Shown: in pieces, positions 1-12,069 of the stretch
Numbering within the stretch: the stretch's first letter is position 1
Layout: the number at the start of each line of letters is the position of its first letter
Assembly: GCA_049642065.1 (NCBI GenBank)
Contig: JBAROK010000074.1
Span: forward strand, 4,114-68,113
Direction of reading: 5' to 3'
DNA: 64,000 nt
Origin: Candidatus Omnitrophota bacterium
GTDB taxonomy: Bacteria > Omnitrophota > Gorgyraeia > Tantalellales > Tantalellaceae
The notes under the pieces: model-generated
What the model saw: only the letters and a program-made list of their open reading frames with translations
Database searches by the model: none
What the model was told of the DNA's origin: nothing
Translations under genes and position numbers: made by a program

Positions 1-260
1 CTTTCGTACAATTATGGCATGGCGCCAGATTCACATACAAAGTCGCGTTAGCCCAATCCGTGAAAGGTTCATCCAATGCCTCGGCCTGACGTATCGCTTC
101 CACTTCGGCATGAACAGCGTTGACCCCGTATTTGCTATGCGACTCCAGTCTTCTTCTTGCGACCGTAACCACTATGTTACCGTCCCCGTCAACTAACCTT
201 GCAGCAACCGGTATGTTAGGATCAAGCTCTCCAGCATTCACCTTTTCTTTCGCGAACCGA
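1..260 (-). other. Domain of the giant protein: CDA/TadA-type zinc-dependent nucleotide deaminase domain, partial; continues beyond the window
   Basis: ...LVDGDGNIVVTVARRRLESHSKYGVNAVHAEVEAIRQAEALDEPFTDWANATLYVNLAPCHNCTK matches the TadA/CDA signature. HAE (H/C-x-E) is about 28 residues before PCxxC. The HAE codons are at about 104-112 and the PC..C codons at 8-22. Confidence 0.7.
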
Positions 261-3200
261 ATCAGTTCAGTCATATGCCGTCTATCCTCTTCGGAAAAGA
301 ACGCTCTTTCTCTTCTTAGTTTTTCAAGGTCATCGAGAACAGCATTGATCGAACCGCGAACTGAATCAATTCTTCCAATAAGCTCATCATAGCCGCCTTC
401 CCTTTGCGCCGCTCTAACCCCTTCCTCAAAATCATTGCTTATAAAGCCCACAAGGCTCCCTGCTTTTCCAATAGCTTGATTTCTGGATCGCGGCAGATTA
501 AAATGGACATCGTCTTTGATCCTCGCAAGGTTTAATGCAAGCTCTTCGCCCATACCCTTAATACATCTGGGACTGACTCTGCCTATCTCCTTCAAATTTA
601 TCCATAGATCCATAAACGTGGCATTTAATCTATTTGTAAAGCCCTCAATATTCCTTACATCCATGACTTCCTGGAGCCTTGCAAGAAATCCTACTTCTTG
701 TTCAATTAGCGGAAGCATACTATCATGCAAAGCAACAACTTTTTCCTTGTTATCCCCAAAAAGTTCAACACAGAAATCAATGTCGCGCTCCAGCTGTTCT
801 TTCTCAAATTCAGGACCGCTACGGCCGGTAAGTTCGTGTGCAAGCTCATGAAACAGGCCCGTCAAGACCAGTTTGCTTCTGGTCTTCTCATCTTCTATCT
901 CGTTAACCGCTTTGTTTATGCCTATAAATCCGTTTCTCCTGTGGTCCTCGAACATATAAGGTGAAACATCAAGCATGCCTATAACAATGGTATTCGGAAG
1001 CTCGTTAACGTCACCGTCGTAACGTTCAACAGTTTTTTCAAGCACTATCTGGACCAGTGCCCCTGAAAGACGTGTACCACGGTCGGTTACAACCCTGATA
1101 GCTCTATCTCCTACTGTTACCCAATTCTCCTCCGCCTTACCCATCCATATAAGAGTCCTGGCCAAGTCTTCCGTCTGATCGAGATATCTCACGTTCACCT
1201 GCATGCCACCCATCATGGAAACCGGGCTGTAATACGGGCTATCCTGACGGATCTTCATGCCTTCGGTGTGAACAGCTGAACCTGTCGCCATAGCAAGCTG
1301 TGTCGGCAATTCAAATCCTTTAGGAAAACTGCGTTCTTTAGCTTTGTGTTTTTCTATCCAATTTTTGCCCAGAAGGATCGGCGTGGGGGATTTAGTAATA
1401 CTCCAAGTAATATCACCAATAAAAGGAATCTTAATAAGACTGGCTTTCGCGTGTACGACTCCTTCCCTGTCACGTAAGATATGTTTTAACGGAAGATTCT
1501 TTAGAGCGCCTCCTTTCATTAAACTCCTGTATTTCGCCTTAGAGTCAGGCGCTTCTATATATTCCTTGTCTTTCGCGAAATATATCCCTTTCTTCCCCTC
1601 ATAATCACCAACAAAGAACCTGAAATCGCTAGGAATAACAAAAGATTCCTTTTTACCTTCCACCTCTACTTTGTGAGTATATTTTTTCTTTCTTTTGGGA
1701 AACACACATTTTACCGTGATCTGTGCCCTGTTCTTGCCTGTCGCAAAGTCCGGTGTTATCCTAACCGACTCCACATACTCCCAAGGGATTATCCCCGTGC
1801 CTTCAGCCCCTACCAGCATTTTAAGTGCAGATTTTTTTAACACAAGCGGCCTTTTATTTTTTTGGCTTATATCTCTGAGATGAAGAAGGAAATCTATAAG
1901 TGCTATTATCTTCTTATGGTCACCTTTGTTCTGTATGTTCATCTCTAAATATTTAAAGAGCATCCCGCGTACGTTACTTTCGGTGATCTCCATGGGCCCG
2001 GATTTTTCAGCAGCTTGAGCTGCTTTTATCCCGGCTCTATCCAACACCCACGCAGATACCCCAGCCCCGGCAAGCTGTAAGACCCCTCTTCTATTTATCC
2101 TCGCATCAGCTAAAAGCGAGGCGTATCCCCTTTGCCCCTCTTGCTTGATCGTCCAAACAATAGCATTAATAACCAGATGCGCCAGCATACTTAAACCCAA
2201 AGCAAGTGCCGGCTGATCGATGTACCTGAACGCGATTATAATTCCTGTAAAAGCAGCAATAATAGGCACCGTAAGAATATGTAGTTGCATTTTCACGAAA
2301 ATGGACTGGTCTGTCATGGCACTGGCCAGCTTGTCAGACCATCTCTGAAACATCATTTTACCGAAAACTACCGTTGTAGATTTATCCGCTTTCGCCTCTG
2401 CTGTGGCAAGATCACTATATCTCCATGAAGTTTCACGATCCGTTATATCTATAACTTTAGCAGGTACACTATTGATACCCCTGAGAGTGGCAGCTATACA
2501 TATGTTATAACCTTCTGCAATATAGTAATTCTCTCCCATCTTAACGACTACAGGCCGGCTCTCGGAAAGCATCTTTTTGAACTTTCCGTCTCTATAAAGG
2601 AAATATCTCAGGATAGTCCACGGGTTATATTGAACCGTGCGGGATACGGTGGTCGATTTTAGCTCAACCTCCCCGTCGTATATATTAGCTACGTTAGTGA
2701 TGTAATCTGGCTGAATACCGGCACATTCAGCAACTTCGTTTAAGACCTTTTCATACGCATCATCGGCCTCGAGATCAGCCTTATCGGCTTTTTTCTTGAT
2801 ATGCTCAATTGATAGAACATTAAGCAGTTCCCGTACTGCAGGCGGACCTCTTGTTCCCATAATATGCCCCAAAACAAATGCCCCGGCAACTGAAACAAGG
2901 AGTCCTGCAAATATACAACTATTAAGTAGCGGCATAGCCGGATTTAACCAGTCAAGGATAGCCTTTACAAGGAACGGTATACCTACCTTGCCAAGCTCTT
3001 CCAGTACGGGTGCGTGCAAAAACGGTGAATAACCGTCTATATTGGAACCAAGTGAGGCGGAGCCAGGCGCCGCATCGATTGGCGCAGGCAACCCTAAAGC
3101 TTTCTGTACAACCTTAGCTTCCGGGACATCTCTTTTCGCCAAATTCATCTTTTTCCGTTTTGCAACTAGCTCCTGGTACTTTTGCTTAAGTTGTTCCAGG

Positions 3201-6200
3201 TTGTCCTTAGCTTTTCCCTTGTCAAAGAATGACGCTTCTCCTAGATCAGGATAACTCTTAAACAGTTTTTCTGTCCTTTTTATACTCTCTCTCAGGTACT
3301 CTATAGCCTCGTCATACCCGGCAAGCACCTTTTCGATCTCTTCGTCATTGATATAACGCAATTTTTTTCGGGCACTCAGTATTACTTCTTCCGCTTTCCG
3401 CTGCACGGTATCGACCTCGTTCAGGCCTTTTCTTAAGTACTTGTTCAGAGATATAGCCCTCCAGTTCCTTATCCTTAGCTTGAAAATGAACCTACCAACT
3501 CGTTCCAATAACCCTCCGCCTATATTCCAAAGAAAGTGGCCGATATGTATTTGCCGCAGAGCTATGTCCTGGATACCCTTGGAACATACAATGTTTTCCA
3601 TGTGAGCATGTATTTCCCTGTTTATGTCCCTGCATTCAACAAAAAGTTTTTCAACTTCATCCAGATGGAAATCTTCAGCTTCTACTTCCGAAAGAACCAC
3701 ACCGTCATCCCCGCGTCCCCCGGTATAAGTCCAATGATAATACTTCTCTCCTCTCCCGCAAAAGACCTTGAGCGTGGGATGTAGGAATTCACTGCTCGAC
3801 CATATCCTTTCGGGGTGTTTGCGCGCAGTAAGTATAAAAGGAACGATCTTTACCAGCGCATCCGGTCTATCCATATTAGGCATGACCTTCATGGTCCGGA
3901 GTAGATCGGGATTTTCAAAAAGATCTTCGTACCCGAACCTCTCCTGCAAGGTCTTCAAGGAAACTTCCCAATGCTGGAACAGTGAACCATACTCTCCGCC
4001 TGGCGTGTACGGATAACCAAATGTGTCGACCGAACCGAACTCAAAAAATTTCCATTCAGGAACAAAACCTATATAGACGATCGAACCGCCCATGGAATGT
4101 CTTCCGGTATTTCGGACATACGCACGAAGAAGTGACGCAAGATAGACCAGGGCCGCATCTGTTCCCGCATCGACCCCATACTCTCCGCCCATCTGTTCTC
4201 TCAATTTCACTATGAAATCTAAGGCTTTATCCTGGTTTGTACCCTTCCAGTAATGAACGCTTGGCTCAACTCTCTCCCCAAAATTAGCTGCCACCGGAAG
4301 ATTCAGTGATGTAATCGCTAGTGGATGTTTTGAAAGCGGCGCTAAGGCCCTGGCCATGCCATCTTCACCCTTCCATTCTGACGGCGGTGCTGATAGAGGC
4401 TTAGCTTCGGGCGCTTCTGGAAGCGGACGCGGGAAATGGATGATCCCGTCAATACCCTCAACGTTAACATCGAGCCCTCTAAAATCGATAAATCCATACC
4501 GCTTACCCCCCTTAACCAGGTCCATGATCGCTCTTACTACCGGCAGAGTAATTGCCTGATGTTCTATTCCAAAAATACTTCCGTGTTCTCCTTCGCAAAC
4601 AGCAGCAACAAGCCCGTAAGGGATACCTCTATCCTCCAGCTGCTTTGGTATCTGACTAGAATCTCTTATATGAGCGTAACCTGTGATTACTGCCATATGG
4701 GCACAAGGATCTTCCTTAAGCGCCTTCTCCATTTGCCCGGCAAGATATTTACCCATGTACATGCCACGCTGAGAGCTTTGCTCATTATCATCCCAGGATG
4801 GATCTCTCTCCCCTGCCGGCATATCAATAAAAACAACTTTAATCCCTAAACGCTGCGCGACCGTTACCAGCTGTTCAAGACGATGCGGTATCCAGCAACT
4901 CTCGGAGATCTCGCTTATATTATCAACCTTGAGATCCGACGGTATCTCCAGCCCCAGGTGGGTAACACCGGCAGCTTTGAGCTGTTCAAGATAATTGACA
5001 AAACCTTTCTGTATACCCAAAGCACCATGATGGGTATCGCCGATAACCAGCACGTTCCTATCGGCAAACAACCCCTTGAAATCTACACCCTCGTGCCACC
5101 GGTTCTCAACGATCTCTTCCCACTTCTCATTATTCGTTCCGAATAAACCGCTACCATCGACGACACTCAAGGGCTTTTCTACCTGCTCTATTCTCTTCTT
5201 CCCCCTAAACGCGTTGTATATCCGCTTTGCCAAACCAGCAACAATTCCGCAGATCTCGTAGATGATTATAACAACACCACCTACAAGACAAACAGCAAGT
5301 AACATAACTAGTGTTGCTGCCGCCCACGAGCTCAGTTCTTTTCCCGCTTCGCTAGCCTTTACTGCGGTCTCAGCGGCCTCGATTATCCCTGGGGTTAACA
5401 AGCCAATAAGAAATACCAACAATCCAACCGGTCCACGTGAAATACCCGAAGAACCTGAATTCCCTTCTTCCGCTTTCTTTCCCTTCTTTTCGTTATATTG
5501 CTCAACCGCTTTTATTACATATTTGTGTGGATCTTTTGCAACAATTCTTAACTTCTCGGTCTCAGGATCCAATAGAATCGGTACTCTTTCGCCCTCTTCG
5601 TCCCTCCTTATTTCTATCCGACCACCTTGGTTTACTATTACAGTGAAATCTACACCACCAAACAGTTTCCCGTCTTTAAAAACTCCTGTTTTTTGTTCGC
5701 TTTTTACCTTTTTCACTCGTTCTCTAAGCATCTTTATATTATGCTCAACTATAAGGCGCGCTGTCCTTGCTTCAGCCAGAGCGACTTTATCTGCGGACGT
5801 CCACGTGCTAGTGAGCTTCTCGTAATCTATCCCCCTCTTTCGAAGCACCCTATTCACTTCCTTGCGCGTCTCTTCTGCCTCTTCGAGAAGATGATCCCGG
5901 TATTTCCCTTCTCCGGCCTTCTCTGCTCTAAGTTTAAGTTCCGCGATCTGGTAAAAAAGCCCCTGTATTTCCTCCATCGCTTTATCTGATAATGTCATGG
6001 GCACTTCGACCAGATGCCCCCATCTTCCTTCAGGGTCCATCTTTATCTTTCCACTCTCATCGACTTTAAGGCTAGGTGTTTCATTAAAATAGAGCTTATC
6101 TCCTCTCATTACCAAGCCCTGTCTGAAAAGACCTTCAAGAGCATTTGTATCCATCGGTCCTCTTTGTTCTCTTATGGGTCCGGCATCCTCGAAAGCAAAC

Positions 6201-9200
6201 CTACTTGAAGTGCTGCGCCTTGCCCTTTTTACTGATTTCCCTTGTGCCGGCTCCTCAGCAAAAGGCATTCTCCTGCTATCTGACTTTTTCGGCGGCTTCA
6301 TTACTTTTGTCGTATCCTGTCCTGGGTACGGCAACTGAATTTCCTGCTTGTTTTCTCTTATATAATCGCTAAGATCTTTGTCTGCCAAAGGAAACATCTC
6401 GCGCTGAAGGATACGTAAAAGATAATGCGGATTCTCATCCCACCCTTCATCCCAACCTTTCTCCCCTTCCTCATCCCTTTGCTCCTCCATTATGAACTGC
6501 ATAGTGTCCGTGGACGGCACAATAGACGTCTGATCCTCTCCGTCAAATGATATGACTACGTACCCGGATTCCATCCTAAGCTCCATGATACCTTTTTTGA
6601 TCAGATACTCTCCTATCTCGTGGAATTCAGCGATCGGATTCTCCTTAAGTTCCGAATAAAAGGCCAGCAGGTCATTTTCGGATGACGTAAAAGCGAAAAG
6701 GTCTTCTACCAGCACCCTGAACGTATACTCCTTGGCCTTTGTCTGGGCGTACCGGACCAGCATAGGATAGATGATATCTCTATAGTAAAACTCATTACCG
6801 GCAATAGCCGAGAGATTGGCCCCCAAATCCCTCATATTCATAAGTTCCCGCGGGATCAAACCAACAACATGTCTGTTTCCCTTGGAATCTATCGCCCTAA
6901 ACTTGCTGTTATCCGGGGACACCATCTCCACCCTCGCACTATTACCTATCTGTAAAGAAGGGCTCACTCCCTCTTCTAAATATTTTATTGCCGCGTCGAC
7001 AGACGCAAACCGGTCGTTCGGATCCCTCCTGATGCATCTCATGATAAATTCCGCAAGAGCATCCGGGATATCTTTCCCTTCTTTTTTAGCCATATCACGT
7101 ATGTCTGTGGGTTCCACGCGGGATTTATTATTGAAGTATTCGGCAATATTCCTTCCGTCGTACGGCAAAGGTACTTTGCCAGTCAATGCTTTGTACAATA
7201 TAATCCCTAATCCGTACACATCAGTACTTTTGTTATATTTTCCTTCTTCATGCAGCGGAAAAACTTCCCAAGGAAGATATTCAGGAGTACCTCGCACATC
7301 ATTGATTTTAAGCTCCCCGCTTTCCGGGAAACGCAGAGCAAGATCAAAATCCACCAAGAAAACAAGACTGGAAAAATCAAATTTGCCGCCTTTTCCCGGT
7401 AGAAGCATATTTGCCGGTTTTATGTCGGTGTGAACTATCCTTTTGCCCTGCACCTTTCTGATAATTTCCAGAACTTTTTTTGCTAGAGTTGCGGCCTCAT
7501 CCGGATTGAGCTGTCTTCCTGAATCGATTACAGTATCCAATGACTCTCCCGGAACAAACTCCGTAACCATAAAGAAATCCTCTCTGCCGTTACCACGTTC
7601 CCAGCGACCCATATCAAGCCCCTTAATAACCCCTCCAACTTCGCTCAAATATCTCATAACAAAATAGCCCTTTAAAAAGCTTGGGAGTTTTCTTCGTAAG
7701 TCCTTTGCTCCGGAATAACGTAAAACTCTCACGGTAACATCTGCCCCAGTCTTTAAATCTTTCGCTTTATACACCATAGAATACTCTCCGGTACCTAATA
7801 ACTTCTCCAACCTGTATCTTCCGGCAAGCATTGACGGGTCGCGCGAAGTGGCTGTTTCCTGCACACTTTTGAACATGAGCCGCATATCTGACAGTAAAGA
7901 TTCCATCTCTTCGCCACTCATAAGAAAACGTTCTGTTCTGACTAATTCATCAATGACCCATCCGATCAAAGCCTCCCTCAAGCGCACCAGATATTCTTCA
8001 ACACGCTCATTTTTCTCCTCCCGATCCGTAGCAGGCTTAAAGCAAGACCGCGCTTGCGATTCGCCAAGCAATATTTCTCTAATCGCTACTTTTGCAGAGT
8101 CATCCATATTTACAAGAGCGTCCAAGCTCTCACTAAAGACCTCATATTCCCCAGTCTCTGATTCTAGCTGCCCCTTAACATCTTTAAGGTTTTCAAAAAA
8201 CCTATCGACCAGAGAAGATTCCGACTCGACCGGATTATACCCACTGAAGGTAGAAGACAACAGTTCCACAACTAACCGGTAGTGCTTATCGCTAAAAAGC
8301 TTAATTTTTGTAGTCAGTTCTTTATCGTCGTCAACACTCCTATCAATAGAACCGTCTATGGAACTGTCCGTCAAAGAACGTCCGATCTGCGACGTATCTG
8401 GCTCCTCGTCACCAAAAAGGGTAAGCTGTCTCGGTTTGCCACGAGGCCTATCTTCCATCCGTGACCTGACTTTTTCTACAAGTTCCCGCGCCTTCTCTTC
8501 GGATAGTGACATCCACAAATCCTTTTCCCACTCATCCTCGGTCCAGGCAGTCCAGGTTATTGGCATACTTCTGAACCCTATGCCGCGAAAGAAATCTTTT
8601 GCGGACTTTCCTCCCTGTTTATCTTTATATTCTTCGTCCTCGGCAGGATGTACTATATACAGATTACGGCTAACTTCTTCTTCCGGTTCAAGATATACGG
8701 CTTCTCCGTCCGGAGCTACCATAGTGTTCTCTTGCTCTAACTCTTCCATGGCACGTTCCGTTATCTTGGCAATAAGAATTTCTCCTATTCCTTCACTCCG
8801 GTGCTTTGCGGAAACCTCCATGTAATCCCCTACCCATACTTTCCTGTTCTTCTCCTTGAATGGGAACTCTCCTTTCGTTGAAACAGATAGCCCAAGGATA
8901 TTCCCAGATGCGTCTTCCAGCTTTATCATACAAACCGGTCCACTCCCACCAGCAGCCCTTTTCGCGGCACTGTCCCACATCCCTCTGCTAAAGTAAGGCT
9001 TCTCTTCCTGTTCGAACCACCTGTCCAGCAGACTGCTCATCGCAGCAGAATCATTCACTTCCCGGGCATAATACCTCTTGTTCCCGATGCTGAATGGTCC
9101 GCTTATTGCGTCCTTGTGAGAAGACGACGCCTGCATTTGCTGTATCAGGCGAGTAAGCTCTATATCCTCTTGATCCCTACCAAATGTACCCTTACCAAAA

Positions 9201-11791
9201 AGATCCAGCTGAACAGCCCGGAGTAGGTAATGTGGGTCCTTTCCCCATGTCTTAGACCATTTCTCGTCTTTTGCTATTAACCAGTTACGGACATGTGTCG
9301 AAAGGAATACTCTAACAACCCTGCCGTCCTGCGTCCGTATTTCGACTTCTTTCCCGTCCCTGACCAAGCTAAGACTAATGGTGTATTTCCTGTTAAGGAA
9401 CTCTCCAATCTCGTGAAACAGAGCAATGGGGTTATCGATCAACTCTTCCTGCAGAGCAATAAGGTTATCTCCAGCAGATACAAACCCGAACAGATCCCCA
9501 ACAAGAGGATTAAAAGAATATAACTCCGGCGGAGAGTTCTCCAAAAGTTCTAAAAATAGTTCCATCACGGACCTGCACTCGGGCTTGCGAGCCATGAACA
9601 ACCTTAAAGCCTCTTTCGCTTTTCCAAGCTCGGCCGCGTTAAGCTCCATCCGTTCTTTAAGAACCTTATTCCTGTCCTCCGCATCCGAAACAGAAACATA
9701 TTTCCTGTCGTTTAATCCAAACACCCTGCTGGGTATTGCCTTTTTACCTATTCGCGAAGACTCCGTTACAACGGAAGACTTTTTCGCCACGAAACCGCCC
9801 AAACGCGCATATCTGTTCTCTTTACGCTTCATAAAAAATTCTTGAGGAATAAATCCGGCAAAGCCTAATTCTTCCAATTTCTTCTGAACAGATTCCTCTT
9901 TTTCGTGAATCCCTATGAAAACTACTTCTACATGCCCGGCCTTGATATCACTATATAATTCGTCCGCCCCGCTGTATTCGGATTCGTTTTTAGTATTGCC
10001 TCTTTTATCCTTGTACACAAGATGAGGCTGTGTGTCCGGATCATCTATAAGAGTGCGTAACGAAGTAGACAAAAGACCGTCTCTCAGCAACCTCTCTATC
10101 ACTTCTGTCTGCATAGGGTAACGCCCATCAAGACCGTCAGGTTCGGAATCCCTGAAATCAAGATAAGAAACTGTCCCACCCGGTTTAAGAACGCGTGCGA
10201 TCTCTTCAAGGATAAACTCCCGATCATGTTTATTGATTACCTGACTAAGCGTGCGGTGCATAACAAGCGCGTCAACTGACGCATCCGGCAATGGAATGCC
10301 ATGAGCCAAGTCACTCTGCTCAAATGCCAGCGCCGGTTTTTTTGCCTGTTTCATTTCTTTTACAGCCGCCCATGCAGAAGCATCTCCAACAAGATTTCCA
10401 GACATTTCGATCGTTTTTTTCTTAGCTTTTTTTATGTTATTTGGGTTAATGTCCAGCCCGAGAACCGAAAACCCTTTATCGTTCATCCACCTGGCTATCT
10501 GCCCTTCTCCACAGCCAAGATCCACAATAACAACCGGCTCGCTTTTCTCAGATACCTGTTCCTTTAAAGTGTTAACGAATTTTACGGGATACGTCCCCTC
10601 GTAAGGGTATTCCGTTCCGCTATACCCTGTGATCTGAGAAGCTGTGAATGTCACAACATTTTCGTTTTTCTCGCCTTTTCTCGAAACCAATACAAGCATA
10701 AGATCCGCAAAAGACCTGCCTCTCTCAATTATGCTAAATCCTGCATCTATTGCCGCCTTCCCCGTATCGGCTATTTCATAGAATTCCGCCATCAGCTTCT
10801 GAAATTCATTATCGCTTAACTCGTACTCCGGTTCGGCTACATCCTCAGCGACTATCATCCCTCCCGGCTTCAGCACCTTGACACATTCACCAAAAAACCT
10901 CTTTTGCGCATTAAAATGTGCCTCCGCTCTCTTACGTATATCTTCCCGAGTATGCCCTAGCGCATCAATCCCACTGGGCACAAAATCAAGAATATTTCTG
11001 AAGATAATCGCATCGAACTGATCACTAGGCAACGTAAAGGGCTGGTTAAAATCCATTTCCACTACTTTTACCTCATCTGCTCCTGCCTTTATAAGACTAC
11101 CCTTGAGTCTACTTATATCCTCATGATCTATATCAACGGCTGTGACCTCTGCGCCCTCACTTGATAGCGCAAGTATATGATCCGGGTTTGACCCTACTCC
11201 CAGTTCAAGTACTTTCTTGCCTTTTAGATTTCCTCCCAATATTTCTTTGAGCTTGGATACTATCGCAGGAGCCTTGCCTGCACCTTTCTTCGTATCGTCC
11301 GAAATGCTTTCTATTTTGATCTTGCTTTCGTCTTTTTGGATCTCGGCTATATCCTCGCAGCTAGAAGTTATCCTGAACTTCTTTCCCTTATTAGGACCGT
11401 CAAATATTTGAAGGTCTACACGAGTCTTCCCGTCTTCCTTTCTCGGATTGGAAAGAACATCTAGGAGACGGTCTCTACTTACTTCAGGCGCAACGCTGAG
11501 CCACTTATCCAACTCAGAGTTTATATCCTGAAACGGGACCATATCTTCTTTAAGCGCCATCGCGAGAATACACGCAAGTTCTAAACGTACCTGCGTATCG
11601 AACTGGCGGCCTGTTACATCCAGGATAGGCTTGAACATTGATTGGATCTGCAGCGTGTGGTGGGCATTAATACGAAGCTCACGACCCATATCGGGATACG
11701 CCCATGCGATATTATTGATTGTGAATAGGCATACTATTGCTATCGCGATTATCTTGATCAGTGTCCTGTGCTTCCTATTTAAGGAGTTCAT
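1..11791 (-). CDS. Giant secreted multi-domain protein, at least 3,930 aa, 3'-truncated by the window edge. Modules: signal peptide, 2x SAM-MTase, GNAT, atypical STK-like, ChaN/Tiki-like, ParB-like, HExxH, CDA/TadA-like deaminase
   Basis: Manual codon-by-codon minus-strand translation from ATG at 11791 to position 1 met no stop. The ORF track lists no closed minus ORF of 60 aa or more in 1-11790, only short antisense plus ORFs. An in-frame TAA lies 21 nt upstream of the ATG. N-terminus reads MNSLNRKHRTLIKIIAIAIVCLFTINNIAWA, a Sec signal with an AxA site. Domain motifs are listed in the separate entries below. Confidence 0.85.
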   Translation of the reverse strand, partial: MNSLNRKHRTLIKIIAIAIVCLFTINNIAWAYPDMGRELRINAHHTLQIQSMFKPILDVTGRQFDTQVRLELACILAMALKEDMVPFQDINSELDKWLSVAPEVSRDRLLDVLSNPRKEDGKTRVDLQIFDGPNKGKKFRITSSCEDIAEIQKDESKIKIESISDDTKKGAGKAPAIVSKLKEILGGNLKGKKVLELGVGSNPDHILALSSEGAEVTAVDIDHEDISRLKGSLIKAGADEVKVVEMDFNQPFTLPSDQFDAIIFRNILDFVPSGIDALGHTREDIRKRAEAHFNAQKRFFGECVKVLKPGGMIVAEDVAEPEYELSDNEFQKLMAEFYEIADTGKAAIDAGFSIIERGRSFADLMLVLVSRKGEKNENVVTFTASQITGYSGTEYPYEGTYPVKFVNTLKEQVSEKSEPVVIVDLGCGEGQIARWMNDKGFSVLGLDINPNNIKKAKKKTIEMSGNLVGDASAWAAVKEMKQAKKPALAFEQSDLAHGIPLPDASVDALVMHRTLSQVINKHDREFILEEIARVLKPGGTVSYLDFRDSEPDGLDGRYPMQTEVIERLLRDGLLSTSLRTLIDDPDTQPHLVYKDKRGNTKNESEYSGADELYSDIKAGHVEVVFIGIHEKEESVQKKLEELGFAGFIPQEFFMKRKENRYARLGGFVAKKSSVVTESSRIGKKAIPSRVFGLNDRKYVSVSDAEDRNKVLKERMELNAAELGKAKEALRLFMARKPECRSVMELFLELLENSPPELYSFNPLVGDLFGFVSAGDNLIALQEELIDNPIALFHEIGEFLNRKYTISLSLVRDGKEVEIRTQDGRVVRVFLSTHVRNWLIAKDEKWSKTWGKDPHYLLRAVQLDLFGKGTFGRDQEDIELTRLIQQMQASSSHKDAISGPFSIGNKRYYAREVNDSAAMSSLLDRWFEQEEKPYFSRGMWDSAAKRAAGGSGPVCMIKLEDASGNILGLSVSTKGEFPFKEKNRKVWVGDYMEVSAKHRSEGIGEILIAKITERAMEELEQENTMVAPDGEAVYLEPEEEVSRNLYIVHPAEDEEYKDKQGGKSAKDFFRGIGFRSMPITWTAWTEDEWEKDLWMSLSEEKARELVEKVRSRMEDRPRGKPRQLTLFGDEEPDTSQIGRSLTDSSIDGSIDRSVDDDKELTTKIKLFSDKHYRLVVELLSSTFSGYNPVESESSLVDRFFENLKDVKGQLESETGEYEVFSESLDALVNMDDSAKVAIREILLGESQARSCFKPATDREEKNERVEEYLVRLREALIGWVIDELVRTERFLMSGEEMESLLSDMRLMFKSVQETATSRDPSMLAGRYRLEKLLGTGEYSMVYKAKDLKTGADVTVRVLRYSGAKDLRRKLPSFLKGYFVMRYLSEVGGVIKGLDMGRWERGNGREDFFMVTEFVPGESLDTVIDSGRQLNPDEAATLAKKVLEIIRKVQGKRIVHTDIKPANMLLPGKGGKFDFSSLVFLVDFDLALRFPESGELKINDVRGTPEYLPWEVFPLHEEGKYNKSTDVYGLGIILYKALTGKVPLPYDGRNIAEYFNNKSRVEPTDIRDMAKKEGKDIPDALAEFIMRCIRRDPNDRFASVDAAIKYLEEGVSPSLQIGNSARVEMVSPDNSKFRAIDSKGNRHVVGLIPRELMNMRDLGANLSAIAGNEFYYRDIIYPMLVRYAQTKAKEYTFRVLVEDLFAFTSSENDLLAFYSELKENPIAEFHEIGEYLIKKGIMELRMESGYVVISFDGEDQTSIVPSTDTMQFIMEEQRDEEGEKGWDEGWDENPHYLLRILQREMFPLADKDLSDYIRENKQEIQLPYPGQDTTKVMKPPKKSDSRRMPFAEEPAQGKSVKRARRSTSSRFAFEDAGPIREQRGPMDTNALEGLFRQGLVMRGDKLYFNETPSLKVDESGKIKMDPEGRWGHLVEVPMTLSDKAMEEIQGLFYQIAELKLRAEKAGEGKYRDHLLEEAEETRKEVNRVLRKRGIDYEKLTSTWTSADKVALAEARTARLIVEHNIKMLRERVKKVKSEQKTGVFKDGKLFGGVDFTVIVNQGGRIEIRRDEEGERVPILLDPETEKLRIVAKDPHKYVIKAVEQYNEKKGKKAEEGNSGSSGISRGPVGLLVFLIGLLTPGIIEAAETAVKASEAGKELSSWAAATLVMLLAVCLVGGVVIIIYEICGIVAGLAKRIYNAFRGKKRIEQVEKPLSVVDGSGLFGTNNEKWEEIVENRWHEGVDFKGLFADRNVLVIGDTHHGALGIQKGFVNYLEQLKAAGVTHLGLEIPSDLKVDNISEISESCWIPHRLEQLVTVAQRLGIKVVFIDMPAGERDPSWDDNEQSSQRGMYMGKYLAGQMEKALKEDPCAHMAVITGYAHIRDSSQIPKQLEDRGIPYGLVAAVCEGEHGSIFGIEHQAITLPVVRAIMDLVKGGKRYGFIDFRGLDVNVEGIDGIIHFPRPLPEAPEAKPLSAPPSEWKGEDGMARALAPLSKHPLAITSLNLPVAANFGERVEPSVHYWKGTNQDKALDFIVKLREQMGGEYGVDAGTDAALVYLASLLRAYVRNTGRHSMGGSIVYIGFVPEWKFFEFGSVDTFGYPYTPGGEYGSLFQHWEVSLKTLQERFGYEDLFENPDLLRTMKVMPNMDRPDALVKIVPFILTARKHPERIWSSSEFLHPTLKVFCGRGEKYYHWTYTGGRGDDGVVLSEVEAEDFHLDEVEKLFVECRDINREIHAHMENIVCSKGIQDIALRQIHIGHFLWNIGGGLLERVGRFIFKLRIRNWRAISLNKYLRKGLNEVDTVQRKAEEVILSARKKLRYINDEEIEKVLAGYDEAIEYLRESIKRTEKLFKSYPDLGEASFFDKGKAKDNLEQLKQKYQELVAKRKKMNLAKRDVPEAKVVQKALGLPAPIDAAPGSASLGSNIDGYSPFLHAPVLEELGKVGIPFLVKAILDWLNPAMPLLNSCIFAGLLVSVAGAFVLGHIMGTRGPPAVRELLNVLSIEHIKKKADKADLEADDAYEKVLNEVAECAGIQPDYITNVANIYDGEVELKSTTVSRTVQYNPWTILRYFLYRDGKFKKMLSESRPVVVKMGENYYIAEGYNICIAATLRGINSVPAKVIDITDRETSWRYSDLATAEAKADKSTTVVFGKMMFQRWSDKLASAMTDQSIFVKMQLHILTVPIIAAFTGIIIAFRYIDQPALALGLSMLAHLVINAIVWTIKQEGQRGYASLLADARINRRGVLQLAGAGVSAWVLDRAGIKAAQAAEKSGPMEITESNVRGMLFKYLEMNIQNKGDHKKIIALIDFLLHLRDISQKNKRPLVLKKSALKMLVGAEGTGIIPWEYVESVRITPDFATGKNRAQITVKCVFPKRKKKYTHKVEVEGKKESFVIPSDFRFFVGDYEGKKGIYFAKDKEYIEAPDSKAKYRSLMKGGALKNLPLKHILRDREGVVHAKASLIKIPFIGDITWSITKSPTPILLGKNWIEKHKAKERSFPKGFELPTQLAMATGSAVHTEGMKIRQDSPYYSPVSMMGGMQVNVRYLDQTEDLARTLIWMGKAEENWVTVGDRAIRVVTDRGTRLSGALVQIVLEKTVERYDGDVNELPNTIVIGMLDVSPYMFEDHRRNGFIGINKAVNEIEDEKTRSKLVLTGLFHELAHELTGRSGPEFEKEQLERDIDFCVELFGDNKEKVVALHDSMLPLIEQEVGFLARLQEVMDVRNIEGFTNRLNATFMDLWINLKEIGRVSPRCIKGMGEELALNLARIKDDVHFNLPRSRNQAIGKAGSLVGFISNDFEEGVRAAQREGGYDELIGRIDSVRGSINAVLDDLEKLRRERAFFSEEDRRHMTELIRFAKEKVNAGELDPNIPVAARLVDGDGNIVVTVARRRLESHSKYGVNAVHAEVEAIRQAEALDEPFTDWANATLYVNLAPCHNCTK
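700..1000 (-). other. Domain of the giant protein: HExxH zincin-like metallopeptidase motif region
   Basis: LVLTGLFHELAHELTGRSGPEFEKEQLE, with HELAH at about 826-855. Confidence 0.4.
2140..2300 (-). other. Segment of the giant protein: second predicted transmembrane-helix cluster, preceded N-terminally by a twin-arginine-like motif
   Basis: Hydrophobic runs IFVKMQLHILTVPIIAAFTGIIIAFRY and ALALGLSMLAHLVINAIVWTI. The RR-like motif ARINRRGVLQLAGAGVSAWVL lies at about 2060-2100. Confidence 0.45.
2440..2560 (-). other. Segment of the giant protein: degenerate ParB/Srx-fold-like segment
   Basis: RPVVVKMGENYYIAEGYNICIAATLRGINSVPAKVIDITDRE follows the ParB N-domain pattern (Y.iIaGeRR..Aa.l.G...vPa.V.d) but has GYN in place of the GERR/GHHR arginines. 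Confidence 0.25.
4600..5110 (-). other. Domain of the giant protein: ChaN/Tiki/TraB-superfamily-like domain
   Basis: VLVIGDTHHGALGIQKGFVNYLEQLKAAGVTHLGLEIP fits the ChaN N-terminal pattern [VI]LLGExHD...H. The C-terminal AVITGYAHIRDSSQIPKQL fits the ChaN GxGHV...P..L motif. Confidence 0.4.
5230..5440 (-). other. Segment of the giant protein: internal pair of predicted transmembrane helices
   Basis: GPVGLLVFLIGLLTPGII and WAAATLVMLLAVCLVGGVVIIIYEICGIVAGL are long hydrophobic stretches separated by a short polar loop. Confidence 0.5.
7000..7830 (-). other. Domain of the giant protein: Hanks-type Ser/Thr protein-kinase-like domain with non-canonical catalytic motifs
   Basis: Glycine loop LGTGEYSMVYKA. 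A VTVRVL strand with R where VAIK has K. Catalytic loop HTDIKPAN (HRD becomes HTD). DFDLA (DFG becomes DFD). GTPEYLPWE. DVYGLGIILYKALTG. Confidence 0.65.
8700..9010 (-). other. Domain of the giant protein: GNAT-like acetyltransferase motif region
   Basis: VWVGDYMEVSAKHRSEGIGEILIAKITERA resembles GNAT motif A (R/Q-x-x-G-x-G/A), about 8762-8803. Confidence 0.4.
10120..10600 (-). other. Domain of the giant protein: class-I SAM-dependent methyltransferase fold, copy 2
   Basis: VVIVDLGCGEGQIARW (about 10495-10545) and ARVLKPGGTVSYLDF (about 10155-10190). Confidence 0.65.
10800..11270 (-). other. Domain of the giant protein: class-I SAM-dependent methyltransferase fold, copy 1
   Basis: Motif I-like VLELGVGSNPDHILAL (about 11171-11212) and post-II motif VKVLKPGGMIVAEDV (about 10845-10885). 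Confidence 0.6.
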
Positions 11792-11835
11792 AGTTATATT
11801 AATTATAATTGGTTAGTCGAATAAAAAGTATATAT

Positions 11836-11864
11836 ATTATATAATAGACCCCCTATTAGGTCAA
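11836..11864 (-). promoter_or_regulatory. Candidate sigma70-type promoter for the giant gene
   Basis: On the minus strand: TTGACC at 11864-11859, a 17-nt spacer, TATAAT at 11841-11836, about 45 nt upstream of the ATG at 11791. The region is AT-rich, so a chance match is possible. No strong Shine-Dalgarno precedes the ATG. Confidence 0.4.
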
Positions 11865-11995
11865 TAAAAAGTAAGCTAGGAATTGTTTTTTTAACGTTTT
11901 GTAAGTGCTTGTAATTACAGGGTTTATGTTGGGTAGTTATAAAAACGTCCCGGAAGTGGTTACTCCCGAGACAGAATATGTAAATAATAAAAAAA

Positions 11996-12069
11996 TGGAG
12001 CGAGCGATGGGGATCGAACCCACGTAGGAAGCTTGGAAGGCTTCTGCACTACCATTGTGCTACGCTCGC
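11996..12069 (-). tRNA. tRNA-Gly (anticodon TCC)
   Basis: Reverse complement GCGAGCGTAGCACAATGGTAGTGCAGAAGCCTTCCAAGCTTCCTACGTGGGTTCGATCCCCATCGCTCGCTCCA. The 7-bp acceptor stem pairs with CGCTCGC. Anticodon loop CTTCCAA. T-loop TTCGATC. CCA is encoded. A T7 run follows the 3' end. Confidence 0.85.

Follow-up and report, generated by a model that had tools for sequence, protein, structure and literature searches.

Giant proteins are a hallmark of the Omnitrophota and other ultra-small episymbionts. Giant open reading frames (ORFs) of this phylum were reported by Seymour et al. 2023 (PMC10066038), and very long Omnitrophota proteins that combine a signal peptide, transmembrane helices and many enzyme domains make up class 1 of Nielsen & Lui 2026 (bioRxiv 10.64898/2026.06.07.730766). 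According to the published descriptions, the giants of this phylum are membrane-associated and one giant protein increases on attachment to prey; whether such a chain is cleaved is a question that has been raised for the Archaeovorins (West-Roberts et al. 2023, bioRxiv 10.1101/2023.11.21.568195). Here we describe a gene for a multi-enzyme protein of 5,108 amino acids (aa), the first 3,930 codons of which lie at the edge (2..11791, minus strand) of a 64,000-nucleotide stretch of Candidatus Omnitrophota bacterium DNA (contig JBAROK010000074.1, positions 4,114 to 68,113; hereafter the window). We read its product, with a probability of about 0.6, as a modular membrane protein with a Sec signal that belongs to a family defined by its conserved ends ('bookends'), is deployed against a host or prey cell and carries a repeated zincin-like domain (module A). 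A member of 5.1 kaa (thousand amino acids) is small enough for experimental handling.

The 5,108 codons form one native gene of Candidatus Omnitrophota. Direct translation of the window gives a minus-strand frame which starts at an ATG at 11791 and runs to position 2 through 3,930 codons and zero stops, with the closest in-frame stop upstream at 11815, and the remaining two frames of the same strand hold 253 and 309 stops. With a stop probability of 0.063 per codon, as calculated from the strand's own base composition, the chance that 3,930 codons are free of stops is about e^-255 (ln P = -254.6). An earlier reading of the sequence alone (hereafter the original prediction) had proposed a single uninterrupted frame of at least 3,930 codons that runs off the window and had pointed to the absence of closed minus-strand ORFs from the same 11.8 kb; both statements hold, as the ORF list contains no closed ORF of at least 80 aa on the minus strand between 1 and 11791 and the full gene has 5,108 codons. 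The extension past position 1 that it had called for is provided by a database protein (P0001; NCBI MGB2651530.1) recovered in an exhaustive search of cluster representatives. The first 3,930 residues of this protein are exactly identical to the window translation and its length is 5,108 aa, so that 1,178 codons lie past window position 1. It is deposited under the product name 'MAG: methyltransferase domain-containing protein [Candidatus Omnitrophota bacterium]'. In addition, the NCBI contig JBAROM010000086.1 (GCA_049642105.1), found by looking up the 214-aa gene upstream of the giant gene, equals the window over 20,645 bases and has the giant gene called at 5,108 aa.

Could several ordinary genes have been fused by an assembly chimera or a missed frameshift? 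This is practically out of the question, since the 5,108-aa ORF recurs in three independent assemblies, in two of them with one amino-acid substitution each, and since an ORF of this length is not expected to stay open by chance. Moreover, a species-level relative from the genome collection (L001, labelled 'uncultured Planctomycetia'), about 45-65% identical to the giant protein, keeps its frame open for at least 4,412 codons and ends with a genuine stop behind a homologous C-terminus. The same ORF in independent assemblies also speaks against the frameshift, internal stop or chimera that the original prediction had named as its own possible refutation. The codon usage of the giant gene follows that of 17 other genes in the window (r = 0.954), its GC content at third codon positions (GC3) is 0.454 against 0.473 for those genes, and GC content and skew are even throughout the window, where PolA and formate-tetrahydrofolate ligase (FTHFS) are found as housekeeping genes. 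The gene is therefore native to this genome, and an origin from foreign DNA was rejected on codon usage and composition together with the chimera and frameshift explanations.

From the N- to the C-terminus the chain consists of the N-bookend, two methyltransferases, module A, a GNAT-like region, a kinase, module A, a transmembrane cluster, a hydrolase-like module (module B), a transmembrane helix, a ParB-box-like stretch, two transmembrane helices, a region with HExxH, a deaminase, module A, a methyltransferase and the C-bookend. All features of the gene described below lie on the minus strand and are given with their window coordinates.

As judged by sequence comparison, the protein is a member of a family that is defined by its N- and C-terminal bookends, with members from 442 to >5,500 aa between whose ends enzyme cassettes have been shuffled. 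The data on this family rest on the exhaustive representative search. A word-indexed search of 5.8 billion proteins with residues 3001-3930, module A or alignment A1 returned nothing or one 258-aa fragment, but this type of search misses very long proteins even though the collection contains them, and its null results are unreliable for such proteins. The N-terminal bookend (residues 1-165; 11297..11791), a signal-like segment and, behind it, a conserved domain without an assigned fold, is shared at the N-termini of relatives: it stands at residue 1 in P0009, P0035, P0046, P0060, P0092 and P0094 and heads ORFs of 442 to 7,388 aa. The C-terminal bookend (about residues 4800-5108) forms the C-terminus of at least nine proteins. 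Conservation in the family is highest over the C-terminal 300 aa (mean column identity 39%), and the variation is central. Profile searches of both bookends against PDB gave chance-level matches only (ribosomal proteins uL13, E = 0.023, and S15, E = 0.056); the uL13 match covers 55 residues of the C-bookend (P0001 about 5020-5080; alignment A3 234-288; '…LP..P..R…KL…') and is probably due to chance.

A metagenome scan with the C-terminal domain retrieved eight loci, in which the ORFs ending in this domain are 442, 835, 1,191, 1,675, 3,502, 3,562 and at least 3,627 aa long. Both bookends are present in five of these ORFs (442, 1,191, 1,675, 3,502 and 3,562 aa), and the shortest, at locus L007, is essentially made up of the two bookends only. 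The cassettes in between differ and are permuted even among relatives at 45-65% identity. For instance, L001 has the kinase ahead of the GNAT region, lacks module B and holds one extra module A when compared with the giant protein. Other members carry a GNAT-like region only (L005), copies of module A (L004), no module A at all (L006) or a GT1 domain with an N-terminal Asn amidohydrolase (P0008), and the NCBI names of further relatives add FHA, AAA and C39 domains to the cargo. The relatives are named as Omnitrophota, with the exception of two Elusimicrobiota.

Signal and transmembrane segments were called from hydropathy and the AxA site. Residues 7-31 are signal-like, with a positive n-region and a hydrophobic core that is followed by AWA|YP (...NNIAWA|YPD), and this site is kept across the family relatives. 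With such a conserved signal-like N-terminus, at least the first 2,100 residues would be exported through Sec. Internal hydrophobic segments are found at residues 2119-2141, 2152-2192, 2951-2981, 3163-3192 and 3194-3216. The first two belong to a cluster (residues 2119-2190; 5222..5437) that may comprise between one and three transmembrane helices and has a flank rich in Lys and Arg behind it; the others appear as one transmembrane-like helix (residues 2951-2981; 2849..2941) and as two adjoining ones (residues 3163-3216; 2144..2305).

Module A is a new repeated domain of about 215 aa without an entry in the catalogues: no Pfam family and no PDB sequence matched it. By repeat comparison, the giant protein has three copies, at residues 678-894 (9110..9760; RIGKKA...GDLFGFVS...ALFHEIGEFL...DPHYLLRAVQ), at residues 1610-1830 (6302..6964) and, in the full 5,108-aa protein beyond window position 1, at residues 4107-4326; four are present in L001. 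Altogether 132 copies were counted in 90 of 135 proteins (cluster representatives), with no more than four per protein, and the median length of the proteins that bear it is 2,039 aa. The consensus reads QIGKRA…SPPxxYTF…EDLFGFAS…NLIALH…NPVALFHEIxEYL…NPHYLLRALQRExFG…DxxLTxxIK, with the signature HExx[E/H]…HY..R. Seven residues are invariant (A112, H115, E116, H180, Y181, R184 and D195 in the numbering of copy 2) and are kept in all three copies here, and of 122 copies, 87 have Glu and 11 have His directly after HExx. The AlphaFold2 (AF2) model of copy 2 (pLDDT 89.7, pTM 0.87) shows three short strands that form a small barrel, a helical hairpin, three further strands, the helix with HExx[E/H] (110-123), a beta-hairpin insert and three helices with HY..R and the Asp. 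Judging from this model and the motif, module A is probably a metal-dependent, zincin-like hydrolase.

Between the GNAT-like region and the kinase, a short stretch (residues 1135-1167; 8270-8390) reads 'SQIGRS…(16 aa)…DDDKELTTKIK' with the first and the last motif of module A present but the core between them absent. This resembles a scar left by the deletion of one copy, and L001 holds an intact copy at the same position, but the support is weak (a 14-aa match to the hidden Markov model, E = 0.08 in a search of four sequences).

Module B (residues 2195-2745; 3557..5209) consists of a Tiki/EreA/ChaN/RRSP/HopBA1-like hydrolase subdomain and a second alpha/beta subdomain. It recurs in about 40 cluster representatives, including stand-alone proteins of 610-770 aa. 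The fold matches include the EreA-like structure 2qgm (16.7), EreC (15.3), the type III effector HopBA1 (15.1), ChaN (13.9), the PMT toxin (11.7), the MARTX effector RRSP (11.1) and TraB (9.0), and the N-terminal subdomain shares the fold of the Tiki/TraB/EreA/ChaN superfamily. PF04187 was matched by just one homologue of module B (E = 0.003, below cut-off). The module contains GDTHH, ExP, RG and GYAH; the corresponding columns conserved in alignment A2 are GDTxH, ExP, RG and GxxH, which we take to be the motifs of this superfamily, the match being one of motifs and not of superposed structures.

Several other enzyme folds were found by searches with Pfam, in which matches up to E = 0.1 were reported, and with NCBIfam models. 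Two class I S-adenosylmethionine (SAM) methyltransferases follow the N-bookend, at about residues 185-375 (10667..11239; Pfam and NCBIfam) and at residues 412-560 (10112..10558; Methyltransf_11, Pfam E = 8e-29), and a third lies beyond the window in the full protein. The GNAT-like region (residues 900-1130; 8402..9094), conserved in four relatives, has an R-x-x-G-x-G motif (HRSEGIGEIL) and matches PF00583 below its cut-off (15.0 bits against 20.7; E = 0.03). The protein-kinase fold (residues 1326-1596; 7004..7816) is far above the cut-off of PF00069 (117.8 bits against 31.7; E = 7e-34). When it is aligned to PknB, Arg replaces the beta3 Lys (VTVRVL) and the Glu of the alphaC helix is lacking at the position of PknB E59, with HTD and DFD kept, and four orthologous domains show the same two changes; by its sequence, this domain is therefore an atypical kinase or pseudokinase. 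At the window edge, the N-terminal part of a cytidine deaminase (CDA)-fold domain (2..268) has HAEVEA and PCHNC intact (HAE...PCHNC) and reaches 42.8 bits against PF00383 (cut-off 25) despite its truncation; the closest solved relative is the dCMP deaminase of phage T4 (E = 9e-7).

Two more regions are conserved with less certain affinities. One of them (302..1294; residues 3500-3830), conserved in three relatives, contains a canonical HExxH (LFHELAHEL, nucleotides 836-850), and its profile search against PDB gave chance-level matches only (TnpA, E = 0.49). Its motif layout is like that of module A, but an assignment as a fourth copy was rejected (hhalign E = 0.062, probability 0.9%). The other (2297..2839) includes a ParB-box-like stretch (PVVVKMGENYYIAEGYNICIAATLRGINSVPAKV). 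It had no Pfam match, its PDB profile search gave Spo0J only at E = 0.95, and its box reads GYNICIAA, without Arg, so the GxxRxxA arginine box is absent. Measured against these results, most modules named in the original prediction are recovered: the two SAM methyltransferases by Pfam and NCBIfam, the ChaN/Tiki-like region by its fold matches to ChaN and TraB, the HExxH by its motif, the deaminase by PF00383 and HAE/PCxxC, and the Sec signal peptide and the internal transmembrane helices by the conserved N-terminal site and hydropathy. Its GNAT call keeps the motif together with a weak profile score, its STK-like kinase stands as a fold but has lost the beta3 Lys and the alphaC Glu, and its ParB-like domain is not supported.

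From this arrangement we infer host-directed deployment and self-processing, and deployment against a host or prey cell seems the most economical reading. The Sec pathway would export or insert the chain, which would stay anchored in the membrane and present or deliver its array of cofactor-dependent enzymes; their targets would lie on or inside the cell that serves this episymbiotic lineage as host or prey. Action in the host cell is suggested because SAM, ATP and acetyl-CoA are not available outside the cytoplasm, and because the Tiki/RRSP/HopBA1 fold, the deaminase and the kinase fold belong to the usual repertoire of host-directed effectors. The published rise of an Omnitrophota giant on attachment to prey fits deployment of this kind, and the host-associated or predatory origin suspected in the original prediction agrees with the organism. 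For the protease within the chain that the question of West-Roberts et al. calls for, module A, which may cut the chain into separate enzymes, is an obvious candidate. A more far-reaching proposal, which we consider improbable, is that module A represents a new self-processing metallopeptidase family and that the bookend proteins are polyproteins with a Sec-exported chassis that takes up enzyme cassettes by recombination and from which the interspersed copies of module A cut the enzymes out, to be released onto or into the host; if true, Omnitrophota giant proteins would thereby have their first concrete machinery for cleavage.

Several points weigh against the reading as a host-directed, zincin-bearing membrane protein. 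The similarity of module A to the zincin fold is only weak or marginal, and HExxE is not a classical zinc-binding motif. QIGK was considered as a site for cleavage in trans and rejected: outside module A it occurs 21 times against about 20 expected, i.e. at chance frequency, and no separate cleavage sites are therefore evident. The 3,562-aa bookend protein L006 lacks module A, so that processing in the family cannot depend on this module in every case. Around residues 2119-2190, the positive-inside rule predicts orientations that contradict each other. Two further points count against delivery and at the same time support a scaffold of another kind, namely a membrane-tethered, cytoplasm-facing assembly in which the hydrophobic segments serve solely as anchors and the methyltransferase, GNAT, kinase-like and deaminase modules have a regulatory or metabolic role on substrates of the cell itself, with no delivery to a host: most stand-alone homologues of module B are without a signal peptide, and the co-occurrence of PF08241 and GNAT in long Omnitrophota proteins is read by Nielsen & Lui as inner-membrane-anchored and cytoplasmic. 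Such a scaffold, which is possible though in our estimate rather unlikely, would also suit the cofactor-dependent modules, all of which need SAM, ATP or acetyl-CoA, and the Lys/Arg-rich flank after the 2157-2190 helix, which would place module B on the cytoplasmic face. However, the positive n-region and the conserved AxA|YP are typical of a cleaved Sec signal that would export the first 2,100 residues, hydrolases of the Tiki/RRSP/HopBA1 type and toxin-like deaminases are typical effector modules, and bookends that stay fixed while unrelated cargo is freely exchanged between them resemble a delivery chassis more than a pathway.

The signal peptide, the large size, the deaminase and the metallopeptidase-like modules could recall a classical polymorphic toxin or contact-dependent inhibition protein, in which a variable C-terminal toxin is accompanied by an immunity gene, and the original prediction had seen a resemblance to polymorphic toxins. 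This is highly doubtful, as conservation in the family peaks in the C-terminal 300 residues, where a polymorphic toxin would vary, and no RHS, filamentous-haemagglutinin or other repeat scaffold was found with Pfam. Furthermore, three relatives are followed downstream by unrelated genes of the housekeeping or mobile type (pyrR/pyrB/pyrC, bipA, ORF6N and RhuM-Fic), and no conserved partner gene was seen beside the three relatives examined. The mix of methyltransferase, ParB-like, HExxH and kinase regions also recalls the polyvalent proteins of phages and conjugative elements, and PADLOC and NCBIfam models for kinases and methyltransferases (mad6, mad2 and PD-T4-6) match at the domain level, as might be seen in an anti-phage defence protein. 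Nevertheless, module A was not found in any of 2.9 million viral contigs of IMG/VR, codon usage and composition are host-like with PolA and FTHFS among the neighbours, and polyvalent proteins do not typically have a signal peptide or transmembrane helices. The PADLOC matches are limited to generic kinase and methyltransferase folds and fall far below the full-length models, which leaves a polyvalent or defence protein barely plausible.

Upstream of the giant gene, a sigma-70-like promoter match (TTGACC-17-TATAAT; 11836..11864, minus strand) lies about 45 nucleotides ahead of the ATG; it is a match to the consensus only. A terminator-like hairpin with a 12-bp stem (11946-11973) follows tRNA-Gly(TCC), which lies immediately upstream of the giant gene. 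Together, the hairpin after the tRNA and the promoter match suggest that the giant gene probably has its own promoter. The TMEM175-like, FMN_bind and AsmA/DUF748 genes further upstream are separated from the giant gene by the tRNA and the hairpin (11946-12069). The small upstream ORFs between 12119 and 19385 (214, 250, 189, 233, 343 and 214 aa) had no NCBIfam match, and Pfam on the identical NCBI contig assigns some of them to TMEM175, FMN_bind, AsmA/DUF748 and YgjP-like. All substantial genes and all four tRNAs of the window (1-64000) are on the minus strand, with a GC skew of about -0.2 throughout the 64 kb, which is an unusually strict strand bias.

Two loci of the relatives deserve mention here. 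At L008 (10869-13856), two ORF6N-domain genes and a RhuM/Fic gene lie downstream of a 1,664-aa bookend protein and are not found beside other members, which suggests a mobile or toxin-antitoxin-like islet. At L011 (1754-6775), a 1,673-aa ORF with a weak TPR match only is placed directly upstream of an 832-aa gene of the bookend family, and long genes may thus cluster.

The size range of the bookend family, from the minimal protein of 442 aa to chains of >5 kaa, suggests growth by the insertion of cassettes. Module A is compact, confidently modelled and repeated and has a metalloprotease-like signature, and it could make the cleavage of giant proteins testable. In addition, a role in manipulating the host, and not just in adhesion or polysaccharide degradation, is suggested by the Tiki/RRSP/HopBA1-like hydrolase, the deaminase and the atypical kinase. 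If none of the readings holds, the gene would be one more long Omnitrophota ORF.

Among the described systems, the closest is class 1 of Nielsen & Lui. Like its members, the giant protein is encoded in an Omnitrophota genome (by NCBI name), has a signal peptide and sparse transmembrane helices at about one per several hundred residues, and contains many unrelated enzyme Pfams of which none dominates by copy number, with PF08241 methyltransferase and GNAT-type content; poor sequence conservation and a large unannotated portion are shared as well. Unlike the proteins in the published catalogues, it has 5,108 aa and falls below the thresholds of 10 kaa (10,000 aa) and 20 kb. Since such proteins have been described for the phylum, the kind is already known, and the protein itself is deposited and named. 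The claim of the original prediction that the combination is not a described protein family and constitutes a novel system was overstated for the same reason, as a multi-enzyme class with signal peptide, transmembrane helices, PF08241 and GNAT exists for the Omnitrophota. We did not find the bookends, the repeated HExx[E/H] module or the Tiki-like, kinase-like and deaminase cargo in the texts searched on Omnitrophota giants.

Like the giant protein, the Archaeovorins are membrane proteins of exceptional length from the Omnitrophota, and they carry methyltransferases and domains of the peptidase type. They differ in their length of >30,000 aa and in having SecA_DEAD, glycosyl transferase (GT), glycosyl hydrolase (GH) and NUDIX domains and N-terminal C39 or S8 peptidases, none of which was detected in the giant protein with Pfam at E up to 0.1. 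MARTX toxins are multi-effector arrays that are released by a cysteine protease domain (CPD). In contrast to these, the giant protein lacks RTX or glycine-rich repeats and a CPD, its candidate protease being the repeated metallopeptidase-like module, and its chain contains transmembrane helices and ends in a conserved domain. Module A itself bears a marginal similarity to the minigluzincins and the M48/M56 peptidases (proabylysin, selecase, BlaR1 and Ste24), with no match at the sequence level. It is set apart from them by a Glu at the second ligand position in most copies, by an extra small beta-barrel at its N-terminus and by the beta-hairpin insert.
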